This document shows, in pieces, positions 15,997 to 25,185 of a stretch of DNA of 64,000 bases. Within the stretch, counting starts at the first letter, position 1. Each line of letters begins with the position of its first letter. Origin of the DNA: Ruminococcus sp. UBA4240 (GTDB lineage Bacteria > Bacillota > Clostridia > Oscillospirales > Ruminococcaceae). Below the pieces are notes generated by a model. That model was not told the origin of the DNA. It saw nothing but the letters and a program-made list of their open reading frames with translations, and did not search any database. The DNA lies in contig DGXE01000024.1 of assembly GCA_002395525.1 (NCBI GenBank), forward strand, positions 18,692 to 82,691, read 5' to 3'. The translations under genes were made by a program, and so were the position numbers.

Positions 15997-16170
15997 TTAG
16001 TCTATTCTATCGCCAAGGTTTAATTCCAAAAGCTCCGGGACAGCATATCTTACACGTTCTATCAAAGCATCAAGTGAGCCGGATTCAAGAACAAGCCCGG
16101 GAACATCCCTGCTTGTAGCGACCCAGACGGCAGCTTCGCTGTCCCACAGCATATCTATTCTGTAATTCAT
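15997..16170 (-). CDS. DUF1902-like small protein (HicB-N-terminal-like fold)
   Basis: Manual translation gives a 57-aa product, MNYRIDMLWDSEAAVWVATSRDVPGLVLESGSLDALIERVRYAVPELLELNLGDRID. A GAGGGA RBS precedes it. It is too short for the ORF track. Confidence 0.5.
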   Translation of the reverse strand: MNYRIDMLWDSEAAVWVATSRDVPGLVLESGSLDALIERVRYAVPELLELNLGDRID

Positions 16171-16309: not shown

Positions 16310-17269
16310 TCAGAAATACTTGTGTCCCCTTGTAAGCCTCAGCAGAAGCTCCAATCGCACGCTGTCACGGTATTCCGGGCGCACCATGTAGTAGACGTAG
16401 GTCTCCAGTATGTTTATATCCGGGACACTGCGCCCCTCTATCTTGAAATTGCGGTACCCCATGGGAACATATCTTTCGTATATGGCACCGGGGGAGATGT
16501 GCAGCGGGGAATCCGTGGTCTGATAAAGGCTTTTCAGCATACAGTCGCACATGAAGGGCTCCGGGTCGCACATCTGATGATGCTCTTTCAGGTAGTCCGC
16601 ACACTTTATCTGGGAGCGGCCTATGGAGCGGTAGTGCTCCCCTCTGCGGCGGCAGTGAGGGGTGCAGCAGGGGTTTATGAGCAGCTCGCACTTCTCCTTG
16701 TGGGGGAGATCTTCGAGCAGGTCAAAGTCATTGTTGAAATTGTAGTCCAGCACCACAAGGGAGTAGTTCCGCTCCAGCTCTTTTATAAGGTCTTCACGGC
16801 TCTCTATCTGCTTGCAGGTGGAAGAGGTTATCTTCATGCCGGGGAAGTTTCTGCGGATGTGCTCCTCCAAATAGGGGAGAAAGACAATGGCTTCGTTAAG
16901 CCCGTTGTCCGCCGCCTTCATGACTGCATTGCAGAAGGGGTCATTCAGGTGCTTTCTTTCAAGGACAGGGTTTGTGAGGGTAAAGCGGCAGGGTATGCCA
17001 CGGTCATTGAACTGTTTGAGCATCTCCCGCATGACACGTCCTTCCATAGGTCCCTGTATAAAGCGCCCCCCGTTCCAGATCATGTTGGGGAACGCCCCGT
17101 ATACCGAGCCTATGGAGATGTTGTCATAAAACTCCTCCGGATGCTTTGCGAGATAGTCCGCAAGGATGATATTCAGCTTGAAATGCCGTACAAAGTCCGG
17201 CAGATGGAAATATATCTTATCCATATCCTGTCCACTAAAACTATCACGGCGCTGCGGATGACAGCTCAT
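16310..17269 (-). CDS. conserved hypothetical Cys-rich protein directly downstream of atpC
   Basis: 319 aa (304 aa if the start is MDKIYF at 17224). Contains a CCTPHCRRRGEHY...C...CDPEPFMCDC cluster. No family was recognised. Confidence 0.5.
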   Translation of the reverse strand: MSCHPQRRDSFSGQDMDKIYFHLPDFVRHFKLNIILADYLAKHPEEFYDNISIGSVYGAFPNMIWNGGRFIQGPMEGRVMREMLKQFNDRGIPCRFTLTNPVLERKHLNDPFCNAVMKAADNGLNEAIVFLPYLEEHIRRNFPGMKITSSTCKQIESREDLIKELERNYSLVVLDYNFNNDFDLLEDLPHKEKCELLINPCCTPHCRRRGEHYRSIGRSQIKCADYLKEHHQMCDPEPFMCDCMLKSLYQTTDSPLHISPGAIYERYVPMGYRNFKIEGRSVPDINILETYVYYMVRPEYRDSVRLELLLRLTRGHKYF

Positions 17270-17679
17270 CCGTTATTGCCGTTGTTTTTAACGCTCAGCC
17301 TGTTGAGGGCACGTTTCAGCTTCATCTCCGCAAGGTCGATGTCATGCTGATTTGCCTTTTCTTCAAGTCGTCTGCGGGCATCCTCCTCGGAGCGGCGTGC
17401 CCAGTTCTCGTCGATCTCATCAGCCCATTCAGCCGCATCCACGAATATGCGCACACGGTTGTAGCCCACCTTGACTATGCCGCCGGAAACTGCCGCAACA
17501 CGCAGCTCTCCCTCTCCCTGACGCACCTTCAGCGCCCCGGGAGGAAGTGCGGCAACAAGGGCTATGTGTCCCGCAAGTATGCCGATGTCGCCCTCGGTGG
17601 AGCGCACTATGACCTCTGTCGCCTCATCATCGAAAAACACCTTTTCCGGGGTGAGCACAGTCAGCTTGAAAGGGGTCAT
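17266..17679 (-). CDS. atpC: F1 ATP synthase epsilon subunit
   Basis: 137 aa, LTVLTPEKVFFDDEATEVIVRSTEGDIGILAGH pattern, last gene of the atp cluster. Confidence 0.9.
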   Translation of the reverse strand: MTPFKLTVLTPEKVFFDDEATEVIVRSTEGDIGILAGHIALVAALPPGALKVRQGEGELRVAAVSGGIVKVGYNRVRIFVDAAEWADEIDENWARRSEEDARRRLEEKANQHDIDLAEMKLKRALNRLSVKNNGNNG

Positions 17680-17680
17680 A

Positions 17681-19105
<1,425 letters not shown>

Positions 19106-19555
19106 CTATTTCAACGATTTGTTATAATCCTCGAACCAGTCTTCAACAGTGACACATTTAACATCCGTAAACTGCTTAAGCTGCTTGTCATTGGTCAGAA
19201 ACAAGTCACATCCATACACAACAGCAACAGCTAATTGTAACGAATCCATGGGTTTAAAGCTACTGTAAGTTGCTCTTATCTTTGCAGCCATTTCTGCAAT
19301 GTCGGTGTCAATCTTGATGAGATCTACACCATAATCTTCGATGAATTCAAAAAACACATCCACCTTAGCAAGATTACCGGTACGATAAGGATGCACAAGA
19401 TACTCCATGCAAGTTACAGCAGAGGTCAGGACTTCTTTTTCAGATACATAGACCTCTTTGAAAACTGCCTTGGTGAGTTCTCCATATTGTTCATTATCAT
19501 CAAGGAAGTAAATCAACGGAGTTGTATCAAGAAAAATACGTTTAAACTCTGTCAT
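19106..19555 (-). CDS. PIN-domain ribonuclease toxin (VapC-like)
   Basis: 149 aa with the N-terminal FLDTTPLIYFLD acidic motif and a later TNDKQL motif. It overlaps the upstream antitoxin gene by 14 nt. It is visibly AT-richer than the flanking atp genes. Confidence 0.75.
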   Translation of the reverse strand: MTEFKRIFLDTTPLIYFLDDNEQYGELTKAVFKEVYVSEKEVLTSAVTCMEYLVHPYRTGNLAKVDVFFEFIEDYGVDLIKIDTDIAEMAAKIRATYSSFKPMDSLQLAVAVVYGCDLFLTNDKQLKQFTDVKCVTVEDWFEDYNKSLK

Positions 19556-19766
19556 TCGAGCGCAGCTCCTCTATATATCGGTCTATATCCTCGGCTGTAT
19601 CGAACATCTTTTTCCCTCTCCCCATGTATTTGTCGAGGTCGATGTCCCTTTTCTTCTCATGGGTGCTGTCAAGTATGGTTATGATAACCTTTTGACCGGC
19701 AGAGAGAGAAACCTTTTCATCCATTACAATACGTTCGCCGTTGTAATAACCATTTACAGAAAGCAT
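19542..19766 (-). CDS. AF2212/DUF104-like antitoxin (VapB-type partner of PIN)
   Basis: MLSVNGYYNGERIVMDEKVSLSAGQKVIITILD fits the DUF104 pattern. An AAGGAGGA RBS precedes the ATG at 19766. The ORF track start at 19808 is probably too early. Confidence 0.6.
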   Translation of the reverse strand: MLSVNGYYNGERIVMDEKVSLSAGQKVIITILDSTHEKKRDIDLDKYMGRGKKMFDTAEDIDRYIEELRSNDRV

Positions 19767-19849
19767 ACTCTCCTCCTTTTCTCCGCTTAAAACGAATCTC
19801 TGCCGCATACAAAGCCGCAGAAGCTGACCGGCCGGCGCAGGCTCCCTTT

Positions 19850-20707
19850 CTACTGTCTCCCTGCCACGATCTCGGTTATCTCCTGAGTGATGGCTGCCTG
19901 ACGGGCACGGTTGTAGTCGAGGGAGAGGGTGTTTATCATTTCCTGTGCATTGTCGGAGGCATTCTCCATGGAATTGCGCCTTGCCGCCTGCTCGGAGGCA
20001 AAGGACTCCAGCACCGCACAGAACACCATCCCCGTAAGGTAGTGTACCACGATGTTGTCAAACACCACCCCTGCGGAGGGCTCGTATATGGGGATGTTCT
20101 TTGAGGGCAGCTCATTGTCTTTGGGTATATTCACAGGCAGCAGCCCCATAGTGGTGGCTGTCTGTGTCAGGGGAGACACGAACTGGGTGTAGAAAAGCTC
20201 CACACTGCGGTACTGCCCTCTTGTATAGGCAGTAACTATGTCCTCTGCGATGAACTGGGCGTGATGCACCCCCAAAGTGTCGCCGATGCCTGCGTATTCG
20301 GACTTCATGGTGCAGCCCCTGCGGTTGAAGTGCTCCACAGCCTTGCGGCCGAATGCCATTATCTCCACATTCTCCATGCCGCCGCATTCCTCGGCTCTTG
20401 CATGGACCAGCTTGAATACAGAGTTGTTGAAGCCCCCTGCAAGCCCTCTGTCCCCTGCTATTACCACGAACAGGTATTTACCATCATCCTTTGCTTTGGT
20501 AAAGGGGGAGAGAAAGCCGGGATTTTCCGCCTGTATCTCGCACATGGTGAGGTACAGCTCGGTGAAATAGGGCTGGGCGTTGTCCGCCCTTTCCTTTGCC
20601 CGCCGCAGCTTGGAGGATGCCACAAGCTCCATGGCCTTTGTTATCTGCATTGTGGATTCGACGCTCTTTATCCTGCGCCGTATGTCCTTCATATTGCCCG
20701 ATGCCAT
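19850..20707 (-). CDS. atpG: F1 ATP synthase gamma subunit
   Basis: 285 aa, MKDIRRRIKSVESTMQITKAMELVASSKLRRA and C-terminal ITQEITEIVAG. Confidence 0.95.
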   Translation of the reverse strand: MASGNMKDIRRRIKSVESTMQITKAMELVASSKLRRAKERADNAQPYFTELYLTMCEIQAENPGFLSPFTKAKDDGKYLFVVIAGDRGLAGGFNNSVFKLVHARAEECGGMENVEIMAFGRKAVEHFNRRGCTMKSEYAGIGDTLGVHHAQFIAEDIVTAYTRGQYRSVELFYTQFVSPLTQTATTMGLLPVNIPKDNELPSKNIPIYEPSAGVVFDNIVVHYLTGMVFCAVLESFASEQAARRNSMENASDNAQEMINTLSLDYNRARQAAITQEITEIVAGRQ

Positions 20708-20748: not shown

Positions 20749-22257
20749 TCACTTTATAAAGCTCTCGGTGTACTCGTCTATTGCGCCTGACAGCGCCTTG
20801 TCCGTCTCCTCCGAGAGGGGCTTGCCGGTGCGTATCTCGGCGAGTATGTCCGAGTGGTTGTTGTCAAGATATGCATACAGCCCTGTCTCGTACTCACGCA
20901 CCCTGTCCACGGGCACGTTTTTCAGCCGTCCGTGTGTGACCGCATAGATGATAGCCACCTGATGGGCAACATCAACAGGGGAGTTCTTGTCCTGCTTTAA
21001 TACCTCCACAACACGCTCACCTAAGGCAAGCCTGTCCTTGGTGTCCTTGTCGAGGTCGGAGCCGAACTGTGAAAAGCTCTGCAGCTCCCTGTACTGGGAG
21101 TAGGTGAGCTTTAATGTGCCCGATACCTTCTTCATGGGCTTTATCTGGGCAGAGCCGCCCACACGGGAAACGGATATGCCCGGGTTTACGGCAGGGCGCA
21201 CACCGGAGTTGAACAGATCCGTTTCAAGGAAGATCTGCCCGTCGGTGATGGATATTACATTTGTGGGAATGTATGCGGATACATCTCCCGCCTGTGTCTC
21301 TATGATGGGCAAAGCGGTTATGGAGCCGCCGCCGTACTCCTCGCTGAGGGAGCAGGCTCTTTCAAGCAGCCTTGAATGGAGATAGAACACATCTCCGGGA
21401 TATGCCTCTCTTCCGGGCGGCCTTTTGAGCAGCAAAGAAAGTGTGCGGTATGCCACAGCGTGCTTGGACAGGTCGTCGTATACGCACAGCACATCCTTCC
21501 CCTGATGGAGGAAGTACTCAGCCATTGCCACGCCTGTGTAGGGGGCTATGTACTGGAGGGGTGCCAGCTCCGATGCGGATGCGGATACGACTATGGTGTA
21601 GTGCAGGGCATCGTTCTTTGCAAGGGTGTCCACCACGTTTGCCACGGTAGAACGCTTCTGCCCTATGGCTACATATACGCAGATGACATTTTCCTTTTTC
21701 TGGTTGATGATGGTATCAAGGGCGATGGTGGTCTTTCCCGTCTGCCTGTCGCCGATGATGAGCTCACGCTGACCTCTGCCCACGGGTATCATGGAGTCTA
21801 TGGCCTTGATACCTGTCTGTAAGGGGCGTGATACGGATTTCCTTGCGATTATGCCATAGGCGGGCTGCTCTATGGGCAGCTTTTCGGTGGTGTCTATGGG
21901 GCCTTTGCCGTCGATGGGCTGACCCAGGGGGTTCACAACTCTCCCCAGGAGAGCCTCTCCCACAGGGACAGACACAACGCTGCCTGTGCGGCGCACGGTG
22001 TCCCCCTCCTTGACAGCTGCGTCAGAGCCTAACATAACAGCCCCCACGGTGTCCTCGTCAAGGTTCATTGCCATGGCGGACACACCGTTGTCAAGCTGCA
22101 GAAGCTCTCCCGACATACAGTTGTCAAGGCCGTATATGGTGCATATGCCGTCTCCCACAGTGATGACTGTGCCGGTGTCGTGGTGCTCTATACCGCTGCG
22201 GAAGGAGCGTATCTGGTTTTTGATTATTCCGGTTATCTCATCCGGACGAAGTTCCAT
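20749..22257 (-). CDS. atpA: F1 ATP synthase alpha subunit
   Basis: 502 aa, Walker [16 protein letters not shown], typical alpha N-terminus. Confidence 0.97.
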
Positions 22258-22304: not shown

Positions 22305-22505
22305 TTAATCAGTGTATCTTTCAAGGTGTTCCCAGTCTATGTCGTCTGCATCGTAATACTCGCCGCTCATGGCTTTTTCAAGCTCCTTGGATTCTGCGGG
22401 TGTGAGCTTGGTGTAGTCAGGATCCCACGCAAGCACTATACGCCGGAGCATTTCGGATGTCGCAGCTTTCTGCGTGCTGCCTTTTTGCATACCTGGTCGT
22501 TTCAC
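22305..22505 (-). CDS. 66-aa hypothetical protein embedded between atpH and atpA
   Basis: The ORF overlaps the atpH stop by 4 nt. It has a basic N-terminus and a very acidic C-terminus (YYDADDIDWEHLERYTD). No family was recognised. Confidence 0.4.
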   Translation of the reverse strand: MKRPGMQKGSTQKAATSEMLRRIVLAWDPDYTKLTPAESKELEKAMSGEYYDADDIDWEHLERYTD

Positions 22506-23044
22506 ACTATTATCCTGTCCTCTATCTGCTGCTTCATTGATGCAAGGCGTGTCCTTACAGAGCCGTCAAGGAGCTCGTCCCCGATCTTGACGACAACACC
22601 GCCTATTATGGCAGGGTCTACCTTCTCGGTGATGATGAGCCGCTTGCTGTACTTTTTTTCCAACTTTTCCTTCAGGGCGGCACGTTCCTTTGCCCCAAGG
22701 GGCACGGCAGTGGTGACCGCCGCCTCGGCTATGCCCGCCCTTTCGTAGTAGCCCTTGCGGTATTCACGGGCAATGGGGGCAAATCTGCCTATCCTGCCCT
22801 TTACCGCCAGCAGGCACATAAAGTCAAGCACCGTGTCTGTCACACGTCCCCCGAACACGCTCGAAAGCAGTCCGGTCTTCTCTGTGTCTGCCACGTCCGG
22901 GGCGCAGAGTATGTCCATAAATTCCGGGTTATCCCCTAATATGGCGGCTATCTGGGAAAGCTCCCCGTCTATCTCGGGGGCATTGCCGTCTTCATATGCT
23001 ATCTCAAGGAGTGCGGCTGCATAGGTCTTTTCTACTGCTCCCAT
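22502..23044 (-). CDS. atpH: F1 ATP synthase delta (OSCP) subunit
   Basis: 180 aa, YAAALLEIA N-terminus and C-terminal IIGGVVVKIGDELLDGSVRTRL. Confidence 0.9.
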   Translation of the reverse strand: MGAVEKTYAAALLEIAYEDGNAPEIDGELSQIAAILGDNPEFMDILCAPDVADTEKTGLLSSVFGGRVTDTVLDFMCLLAVKGRIGRFAPIAREYRKGYYERAGIAEAAVTTAVPLGAKERAALKEKLEKKYSKRLIITEKVDPAIIGGVVVKIGDELLDGSVRTRLASMKQQIEDRIIV

Positions 23045-23055
23045 AGGGCGCCTCC

Positions 23056-23568
23056 TTAATTGCTGCTGTCATCAAGCTCATTCAGAAAGTCGTGTATGAG
23101 CCTTTCCTGCTCGGTGTCGCTGCTTACCTGGTGACCTATTACCTTGCCTGCGATGTCAAGCGCAAGGTCGGAGATCTCGTCCTTGACGGAGTTGACAGCC
23201 CGCACACGCTCCCGCTCGATGTCCTCATCGGCTCTCTGGCGAATCAAAGCAGCCTGCTGCCTTGCCTCGGTGATTATCTCGTCGGAGCGGGCGGATGCCT
23301 TGCGGGAAGCCTCGGCGATCATGGCGGCGGATTCTTCCTTTGCGCCTGCTATGCGCTGGGAATACTCCTCCCGCATCTCCTTGGCCTCGGACAGAGCCTT
23401 GTCCGCATCAAGATAGGTCTGGGTGACGGATCTTTTTCTCTCGTCAAGTATTTTGTTCACAGGTTCAAAAAGGAATTTCTTAAACAGCAGCACGAGTATG
23501 AGGGTATTGCACAGAACACCGATTATGGTGGTGGGCTCTATGCTGAAAAATTCAAAATTCATATCCAT
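23056..23568 (-). CDS. atpF: Fo ATP synthase b subunit
   Basis: 170 aa, a single N-terminal TM segment followed by a long charged helix, canonical operon position. Confidence 0.85.
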   Translation of the reverse strand: MDMNFEFFSIEPTTIIGVLCNTLILVLLFKKFLFEPVNKILDERKRSVTQTYLDADKALSEAKEMREEYSQRIAGAKEESAAMIAEASRKASARSDEIITEARQQAALIRQRADEDIERERVRAVNSVKDEISDLALDIAGKVIGHQVSSDTEQERLIHDFLNELDDSSN

Positions 23569-23584: not shown

Positions 23585-23926
<342 letters not shown>

Positions 23927-24694
23927 TTATTCCTTTCCCGCTGCCTGCCCTATGTAGGTCATGGAGAGCATGATGAAAACATATGACTGTATGACAGAGG
24001 AGAAAAGATCAAAGTAAATGGAGAGGGCTGCGGGAATGCCTATCTGGAACACCTTGAAGTAGTCCGTAATGACCGATGATGTGCCGATAAGGTTGTACAC
24101 CGCATTGGATGCCACCGTCAGCGCCGCATATACCATGGATGTGATTATCATGCCGCTGGATATGTTGCCGAAGATACGTATGCCCATGGCTGCGGGAGTG
24201 GCTACCTCACTGAGTACGTTTATTGGGGTGATGACGGGTGTAGGCTCGGCATAGCTTTTCAGATAGCCGAAGAACCCGTTGGTGCGTATCTTGTAGAATG
24301 TGATGAGAAACAGTGTCATAGCCGCCCATGTGCCCGTGCAGGAGATGTCCGCAGTCATGCTGCGAAGCCCCGTCATGCTTATAAGGGAGCCGAAGAGGGC
24401 AAAGGCGAATATGGCGCATATGTAGGGGGCAAAGCCCAGCATGGTAGTGCCCATGTTCTCCGCCACAAGGTTGTTGAAGAACTCCACTATCCACTCCGCA
24501 ATGACCTGCCGCTTGGATTCGGGCTTCAGCTTCAGGTTGTGGGTGAGCACCTTCATGGCGATGAACAGGAGTATTATGACCAGCCACCCTGTCACCACCG
24601 TCTCGGATATGGAAAACAGCACCTCTCCCCCGGAGAGGAAGCTTATCATCCGACGTGGTCCCTCCACATTGATCTGTATTTCGGTATTGTACAT
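23927..24694 (-). CDS. atpB: Fo ATP synthase a subunit
   Basis: 255 aa polytopic protein with the conserved Arg region (MGIRIFGNISSG). Confidence 0.9.
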   Translation of the reverse strand: MYNTEIQINVEGPRRMISFLSGGEVLFSISETVVTGWLVIILLFIAMKVLTHNLKLKPESKRQVIAEWIVEFFNNLVAENMGTTMLGFAPYICAIFAFALFGSLISMTGLRSMTADISCTGTWAAMTLFLITFYKIRTNGFFGYLKSYAEPTPVITPINVLSEVATPAAMGIRIFGNISSGMIITSMVYAALTVASNAVYNLIGTSSVITDYFKVFQIGIPAALSIYFDLFSSVIQSYVFIMLSMTYIGQAAGKE

Positions 24695-24712: not shown

Positions 24713-25111
24713 CTACTTTTTCATCCTGTGCCCAAACTCGTCCCTTATGCCCAGAAGGGTGTAGCCCGCCTTCGGGAAAAGCAGGGGGATAAAGGTACAG
24801 GGGAAGTTTATAAAGCTGACATTATAGCCTATCCACAGCACGCCCCCCATAATGAGGAGCCGCAGAAGATAGAACATGAGCATATAGCGCCTGCCGCCCT
24901 TTTCGCCCTTGTCCACGGCGTGAACGGTCGCCCATCCCAGAAGGAGCATATTCACAAGGCTCCCCAGTATCCCAAGGGCAAGCCCCAGGGGGACTTCGGG
25001 GGTAAAGCCGTAAAAGGGCAGTGTAAGCAGGAATGTGATGACAGCACCTGCCAGAGTGCATTTCAGCAGGAATGGGAGCTGTTCGCCCATAAGTCTTTTG
25101 AACTGCTCCAT
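24713..25111 (-). CDS. atpI: AtpI-like small membrane protein
   Basis: Four hydrophobic segments, first gene of the atp cluster. The start at 25111 (MEQFKRL, GGAGAGAG RBS) is preferred because the promoter -10 box lies only 7 nt upstream of the track start at 25150. Confidence 0.55.
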   Translation of the reverse strand: MEQFKRLMGEQLPFLLKCTLAGAVITFLLTLPFYGFTPEVPLGLALGILGSLVNMLLLGWATVHAVDKGEKGGRRYMLMFYLLRLLIMGGVLWIGYNVSFINFPCTFIPLLFPKAGYTLLGIRDEFGHRMKK

Positions 25112-25156
25112 ATCTCTCTCCGATCTGCCGTCTGGTTTTCGCTGTATCAAATAATC

Positions 25157-25185
25157 ATTATAACAAATCCAACCTTAAATTTCAA
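25157..25185 (-). promoter_or_regulatory. sigma-A type promoter of the atp operon
   Basis: The minus strand reads TTGAAA (25185-25180), 17-nt spacer, TATAAT (25162-25157). Confidence 0.6.

Follow-up and report, generated by a model that had tools for sequence, protein, structure and literature searches.

How a toxin-antitoxin (TA) pair came to lie inside an F1Fo ATP synthase operon, between the genes for the gamma and beta subunits, and whether it serves that operon or only rides in it, are the questions raised by this locus of Ruminococcus sp. UBA4240. The window, by which we mean the whole stretch of DNA analysed, spans 64,000 nucleotides and belongs to a MAG of 2.27 Mb in 83 contigs. On its minus strand the genes follow the order atpIBEFHAG, antitoxin, PIN toxin, atpD and atpC, and the features of the region are these:

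25157-25185, minus strand: candidate atp promoter TTGAAA-17-TATAAT with TG, upstream of atpI (consensus match 11/12)
24713-25150, minus strand: atpI (Pfam)
23927-24694, minus strand: atpB (Pfam)
23585-23881, minus strand: atpE (Pfam)
23056-23568, minus strand: atpF (Pfam)
22502-23044, minus strand: atpH (Pfam)
22305-22505, minus strand: extra ORF of 66 aa between atpH and atpA (no family match)
20749-22257, minus strand: atpA (Pfam)
19850-20707, minus strand: atpG, F1 gamma subunit (PF00231, E=8.8e-90), with its stop at 19850
19767-19849, minus strand: spacer of 83 nt that separates atpG from the antitoxin and carries the RBS AAGGAGGAG
19542-19766, minus strand: antitoxin of 74 aa, from a family without library annotation
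19106-19555, minus strand: VapC-type PIN-domain toxin of 149 aa (PF01850, E=4.6e-16)
19082-19105, minus strand: spacer of 24 nt between the PIN gene and atpD, with GGAAAGG, the Shine-Dalgarno sequence of atpD, 7 nt ahead of its ATG
17681-19081, minus strand: atpD (Pfam), with its ATG at 19081
17266-17679, minus strand: atpC (Pfam)

According to Pfam, all nine atp genes (I, a, c, b, delta, alpha, gamma, beta and epsilon) are co-oriented and stand in canonical order. The positions given in the first-pass annotation for the atpG stop, the antitoxin, the PIN gene, their 14-nt overlap, the 24-nt gap and the atpD start are all right to the base, and GGAAAGG is indeed present in the gap where it had placed the RBS of atpD. 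Its description of the operon as otherwise canonical has to be given up, since it also has a 66-aa ORF in the interval from atpH to atpA and another, of 319 aa, that overlaps the stop of atpC. The nine-gene operon has thereby received additions at 22305-22505 and at 16310-17269, with the TA pair as the third.

The 66-aa ORF is variable among strains; it is seen in lineage A, to which the window and contig L043 belong, and is missing from lineage B, where the gap between atpH and atpA measures only 137 nt (L042:1178-1316). Pfam and NCBIfam scans of this ORF gave no match, and it looks like a second small insertion into the atp operon. The 319-aa ORF is rich in Cys, is encoded on the minus strand and is kept in all strain lineages; it was likewise without match in Pfam and NCBIfam scans. 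Its divergence between lineages A and B (pN 0.008 against pS 0.15) indicates purifying selection. Elsewhere in the same genome (C68:42319-43587), a 678-aa ORF matches subunit I of V-type ATPases (PF01496, 65.8 bits). The organism may accordingly possess a second rotary ATPase besides the F-type, and this match therefore makes uncertain the premise that the pair sits in an essential operon; the atp operon may not be strictly essential.

The gene immediately upstream of atpD had been called a PIN-domain toxin, and this is borne out by its match to PF01850, by the VapC fold of its model and by four invariant acidic residues. The match reaches 60 bits against a cut-off of 23.6. An alignment of 22 family members shows D10, E51, D104 and D123 to be invariant, and these four are assigned to the metal site from where they fall in the PIN profile. 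The AF2 model has a pLDDT of 86, and its top Foldseek matches are VapC toxins (5ecw, 3tnd, 6ifc and 4xgq; TM 0.7-0.8), with only 13-23% identity to solved VapCs and profile E values that are no better than 0.02 and thus marginal. The toxin is predicted to be a PIN-domain endoribonuclease with RNase activity. About 800 homologues were found in metagenomes, the nearest one other than the protein itself being 63% identical, and this search of metagenome homologues revealed no close donor of the cassette.

For the antitoxin, the start is the ATG at 19766, preceded by AAGGAGGAG. A longer ORF that reaches up to 19808 is not in use, because the homologues are 72-79 aa long and all begin with ML(T/S)AV. 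The protein is a member of a conserved family of about 73 aa that is unannotated in the libraries searched. Across 53 homologues the invariant columns of its N-terminus read GYYNG..IV..E...L..GQ.VIIT, and the C-terminus carries the pattern DL.KYMGRGKKMF...Y..ELR.NDR. Scans against Pfam, NCBIfam and PDB profiles returned no match, including none to AbrB, RHH, Phd/YefM or HTH; the AF2 model, with a pLDDT of only 69 and two short N-terminal strands, has no Foldseek match; and PADLOC gave nothing usable for this protein. The first-pass annotation had labelled it AF2212/DUF104-like. This label finds no backing in the DUF104 HMM (PF01954), which leaves the protein of the window unmatched at E up to 0.1 and, with E allowed up to 10, matches not one of 24 members of the family. 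By eye, the N-terminal G-Y-x-N-G...L..G..V.I does resemble what we take to be the DUF104 motif, and AF2212/DUF104 antitoxins have a PIN partner, as the antitoxin has here; however, its C-terminal half, with KYMGRGKKMF...ELR.NDR, is no part of DUF104.

That the two genes form one module is indicated most strongly by their conserved pairing. An antitoxin partner lies upstream of the PIN gene in 66 of the 80 family loci inspected, and in 61 of these 66 the two genes overlap by exactly 14 nt. The view of the locus as a VapBC-type pair, made up of a PIN toxin and a small co-oriented upstream gene, is upheld by this conservation. The two genes would be translationally coupled via the overlap, and the conserved C-terminal segment of the antitoxin presumably covers the active site of the toxin, which the antitoxin is predicted to neutralise.

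The pair differs from its surroundings in composition. Its GC content is 0.399 against a mean of 0.53 for the ORFs of the genome, and among genome windows of 661 nt it ranks in the lowest 2.4%; GC3 of the PIN gene is 0.387 (1.6th percentile) and its codon usage falls on the 2nd percentile, the values of the atp flanks being ordinary or higher than average. The AT-richness relative to the flanks that had been noticed on reading the sequence is therefore also seen on calculation, in windowed GC, GC3 and codon usage alike.

The location is unusual too. No homologue was detected in 29 congeneric species and 31 further relatives. The context between atpG and atpD was readable in 29 relatives (listed as 24 congeneric species and four species of other genera in the family), and there the spacer is 25-380 nt long and free of genes, the longer spacers containing palindromic repeats only. 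For 129 other atpG-atpD pairs of Clostridia, from 125 genomes, the gap, measured from alignment to alignment, has a median of 44 nt, and the largest, at 309 nt, is non-coding, so that the host gap of 771 nt is the sole outlier of this evenly drawn class-level sample. The four longest of these other spacers consist of tandem or palindromic repeats and hold no TA remnants. The comparison with the atp operons of relatives, which the first-pass annotation had proposed, thus marks the insert as lineage-specific, absent from 60 relatives and from 129 Clostridia junctions. The TA family itself is not rare: 522 loci were found in GTDB contigs sampled at one genome per species, and it occurs commonly in Lachnospiraceae, Oscillospiraceae, Selenomonadaceae, Synergistales and further taxa of the gut and rumen. 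Among the 80 loci inspected none has atp genes near the cassette, and their contexts are unrelated. Foreign composition together with absence from relatives thus points to a horizontally acquired cassette at a very unusual address.

Repeats of several kinds are found in the corresponding spacers of other species. Palindromic GC-rich modules occupy the spacers of two congeners (L022 and L030, both of about 375 nt), and the spacer of L013 is also repeat-bearing. In the L154-L157 set, the spacer of L156 has three tandem copies of a unit of about 46 nt, and that of L157 has repeated GATAGAACTTCCATATGA units. At the locus itself, direct repeats or copied ends of atpG or atpD were considered as traces of the insertion; only one 11-nt repeat (10/11 identical, 19059-19069 and 19088-19098) was seen around the insert, and it was dismissed, since by our estimate chance alone would give about three such pairs in 861 nt.

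The first-pass annotation had noted neither promoter nor terminator between the module and atpD, and our consensus scan agrees: from 19081 to 19850 it found no intrinsic terminator and no sigma-70-like promoter, and there is no stable hairpin. Moreover, a stretch of 116 nt that covers the 3' end of atpG, the spacer and the start of the antitoxin folds no better than shuffled sequences (z=+2.0). In the 150 nt that precede the antitoxin the scan detected no sigma-70-like site of at least 9/12. Of 66 family copies, 36 do have one of at least 10/12, which ends 27-103 nt before the antitoxin, where shuffling expects 2.4. In two independent family copies that were inspected the promoters are TTGCCA-17-TAAAAT and TTGCAA-17-TATAAT. 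On the minus strand between 16 and 26 kb, the only strong promoter match is the site upstream of atpI (25157-25185), which would drive the whole polycistron including the TA pair. Because the pair is devoid of a recognisable promoter and terminator of its own while more than half of the family copies (36/66) possess a strong promoter, co-transcription with the atp genes is what we infer as the best explanation, and the pair is most likely transcribed within an atpIBEFHAG-TA-DC polycistron. A Logan contig of SRR873595 that runs across the locus was considered as transcript evidence and set aside, its source being a metagenome DNA library and not a metatranscriptome (PMC4158751).

We therefore regard as the probable history of the locus that a VapBC-like cassette was horizontally acquired once, came without a promoter, is transcribed by the atp operon, and persists as a tolerated passenger that is now decaying within the species. 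The single acquisition would have taken place in the ancestor or an early population of a rumen Oscillospiraceae species, and the landing site would have been the atpG-atpD spacer, which in relatives is a variable non-coding stretch that accepts repeat insertions. Two ORFs with their 5'-UTR and RBS would have arrived, the promoter typical of the family being left behind and a terminator being absent, so that atpD and atpC would be expressed by read-through, with the RBS in the 24-nt gap. On this reading the module would be no part of the ATP synthase but a selfish or accessory passenger, which this genome and many strains have kept intact and which others are losing, toxin first.

Most type II TA systems are autoregulated, and the pair might likewise be autonomous, with a weak or non-consensus promoter of its own, placed either in the 83-nt spacer or at the 3' end of atpG, an operator bound by the N-terminus of the antitoxin, and read-through from atp as an incidental matter. 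The N-terminal motif is invariant across the family, as expected of a DNA-binding or dimerisation domain, and the last 47 nt or so of the spacer are conserved between lineages, both of which fit such a system. However, the missing site of 9/12 or better within 150 nt upstream, set against the sites of at least 10/12 in 36 of 66 family copies, speaks against such a promoter, and the spacer (19767-19849), GC-rich on its atpG side, contains no inverted-repeat operator. We consider autonomous control rather unlikely, although an internal promoter that is non-consensus or not of sigma-70 type may be present. Even with a promoter of its own the pair would be on the atp transcript, since terminators are absent both upstream and downstream of it.

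To return to the passenger cassette, its insertion junctions are identical in at least five strain lineages, among which 1.6-3.1% of the nucleotides of atpD differ. Lineage A (that of the window) and lineage B both have an intact pair; their atp genes show 2.3-2.6% nucleotide difference but the TA pair only 4 differences in 661 nt. The three differences in the PIN gene are all synonymous, and the one in the antitoxin is the conservative change E38D. In synonymous terms, 3 of 137 sites differ in the TA pair against 89 of 999 in atpA, atpG, atpD and atpC together (Fisher p=0.004), a divergence about four times lower in the pair. The block of low divergence runs from about 19817 to 18927 and therefore extends some 155 nt into atpD. 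The last 47 nt or so of the spacer, including the RBS AAGGAGGAG, are almost invariant, and the TA block from 19817 onward is likewise. Neither AtpG of the two lineages nor AtpD, used as exact-protein queries, recovered a contig of the same species that is without the insert. Directly after the stop of atpG, some 30 nt of the spacer (19818-19849) form a divergence hotspot, with a 17-nt indel CGGCCGGTCAGCTTCTG and several substitutions; variation between strain lineages covers roughly the first 50 nt.

The low synonymous divergence of the pair is not explained by a simple history of ancestral insertion followed by vertical descent. Either the pair spread between diverged lineages by homologous recombination, or it mutates more slowly. 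A bolder proposal is that promoterless TA cassettes find in atp operons, with their strong and constitutive transcription, a preferred safe harbour, the atpG-atpD spacer being a recurrent landing site in unrelated phyla, and that the conserved atp flanks let the present cassette pass between diverged lineages by homologous recombination. Such recombinational spread would explain the fourfold lower synonymous divergence, and yet we hold this proposal as a whole to be distinctly speculative and unlikely to be correct.

The decay of the passenger cassette is documented by an allele survey in which an exact search with the AtpD protein recovered 23 contigs. These fall into the following types:

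Intact lineage B, about 8 contigs: unchanged
Intact lineage A, about 4 contigs: unchanged
L145 type, about 3 contigs: 2-nt deletion near 19496-19497, by which PIN stops after 20 aa; antitoxin intact
L146/L148 type (including MAG GCA_017459085.1), about 6 contigs: frameshift of the L145 type, antitoxin Tyr8 changed to stop (19743 C>A) and, within PIN codon 144, a palindromic element of 124 nt
L147, 1 contig: 402-nt deletion (19107-19508) that leaves a PIN stub of 15 codons; antitoxin intact
1 contig too short to call

About 10 of the 23 contigs are thus without a functional toxin, and the toxin has been inactivated at least twice independently. The 124-nt element is GC-rich and sits at about 2352-2477 of L146, a contig of another strain lineage, where it has entered the PIN gene near its 3' end, apparently with a TT duplication. 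At least three full copies that are 98-100% identical exist in the genome of the window itself (C25:1818-1941, C21:30290-30413 and C14:41395-41518), besides partial copies on C69, C32, C57, C64, C17 and C56, and these copies mark the element as a resident MITE-like repeat. In all alleles, whether intact, frameshifted, deleted or hit by the MITE, the 24 nt before atpD are unchanged and the AtpD protein is identical. The module is therefore dispensable, and its removal does not break the operon.

A second TA pair, located just downstream of the atp operon, is decaying as well (window 15997-16170, minus strand; L042:7386-7797). In lineage B the DUF1902 (HicB-like) gene is complete, at 74 aa, and is accompanied by a 64-aa HicA toxin; the window has a truncated DUF1902 ORF of 57 aa and no HicA.

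Many chromosomal type II TA systems act in phage defence, and where the pair is kept, it might be kept for abortive infection, in which case its genomic address would be irrelevant. A patchwork of strains that retain the pair and strains in which it decays is typical of defence genes, and the neighbouring HicAB pair is variable among strains too. However, PADLOC gives only weak matches for the pair (E=0.004, to a candidate model), and the context is not that of a defence island; we find retention for defence improbable.

Much less credible is a domesticated role within the operon. The pair could be thought to act as an energy-coupled switch, in which a drop in atp expression would free the toxin and arrest growth, or as a stabiliser whose loss would disturb atpD and atpC. 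Its promoterless state inside the operon would suit either role, as would the intact state of the module in two lineages with only synonymous changes in PIN. Against this, about 10 of the 23 contigs with identical AtpD have an inactivated toxin, among them one with a clean 402-nt deletion that spares the RBS of atpD; none of the 29 congeners and none of 129 other Clostridia operons carries the pair; and the genome also matches a V-type ATPase subunit I. We judge domestication very unlikely. The related suggestion of the first-pass annotation, that the risk of polar effects stabilises the module, finds no support in the alleles with the 402-nt deletion, the 2-nt frameshift and the MITE insertion, all of which keep an identical AtpD.

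Finally, that a foreign AT-rich fragment was joined into the atp operon by faulty assembly or binning might be suspected of a compositionally foreign insert in an 83-contig MAG, but the chance of this is vanishingly small, as an identical PIN protein is encoded between atpG and atpD on 22 contigs from several rumen studies, the same junctions occur on at least 22 contigs from independent samples, studies and assemblers, some of them longer than 200 kb, and allelic variants share these junctions, so that misassembly is ruled out.

The tolerated-passenger reading makes this locus a well-sampled natural case of a selfish two-gene module inside the operon of a core enzyme. The population series follows the usual fate of chromosomal TA systems, in which the toxin is lost, then the antitoxin, and then comes the MITE hit, the host operon remaining unharmed throughout. 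Decay without harm to the operon means that such a placement implies, by itself, neither function nor domestication. Brought to notice as well is the unannotated family of the antitoxin, which is present in hundreds of gut and rumen genomes.

Among known systems the pair is closest to VapBC. With VapC of Shigella and Salmonella (PDB 5ecw, 3tnd and 6ifc) and VapBC30 of M. tuberculosis (4xgq/4xgr) it shares a PIN toxin of about 130-150 aa and the four acidic residues, and as in VapBC a small upstream antitoxin gene overlaps the start of the toxin. By toxin criteria, as judged from its sequence, the pair is a member of the VapBC class. However, VapBC antitoxins carry recognised DNA-binding domains (AbrB, RHH, Phd/YefM or HTH), and in profile scans the antitoxin here matches none of these; in addition, a classical autoregulated VapBC is defined by its own promoter and operator, which this copy is without according to the consensus scan.

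In the literature library that was searched, no paper describes a TA system inside an atp operon. The nearest arrangement described is that of Staphylococcus aureus, in which mazEF is transcriptionally linked to the sigB operon (PMC3920265). There too a type II TA system, directly upstream of a polycistronic operon, is co-transcribed with it and is not classically autoregulated. However, mazEF of S. aureus stands at the 5' end of the operon, with its own promoter and read-through at a weak terminator, whereas the pair here is promoterless and lies in mid-operon between subunit genes; the toxin families also differ, being MazF there and PIN here. In Caldalkalibacillus thermarum TA2.A1, mazEF is located just downstream of the ndh1 and F1Fo-ATP synthase operons, a position called intriguing by its authors (PMC7561548). 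That mazEF adjoins the atp operon from outside, whereas the present pair interrupts the series of subunit genes between gamma and beta. Nothing points to a new mechanism; the placement of this VapBC-like pair is rare and the series of alleles instructive.
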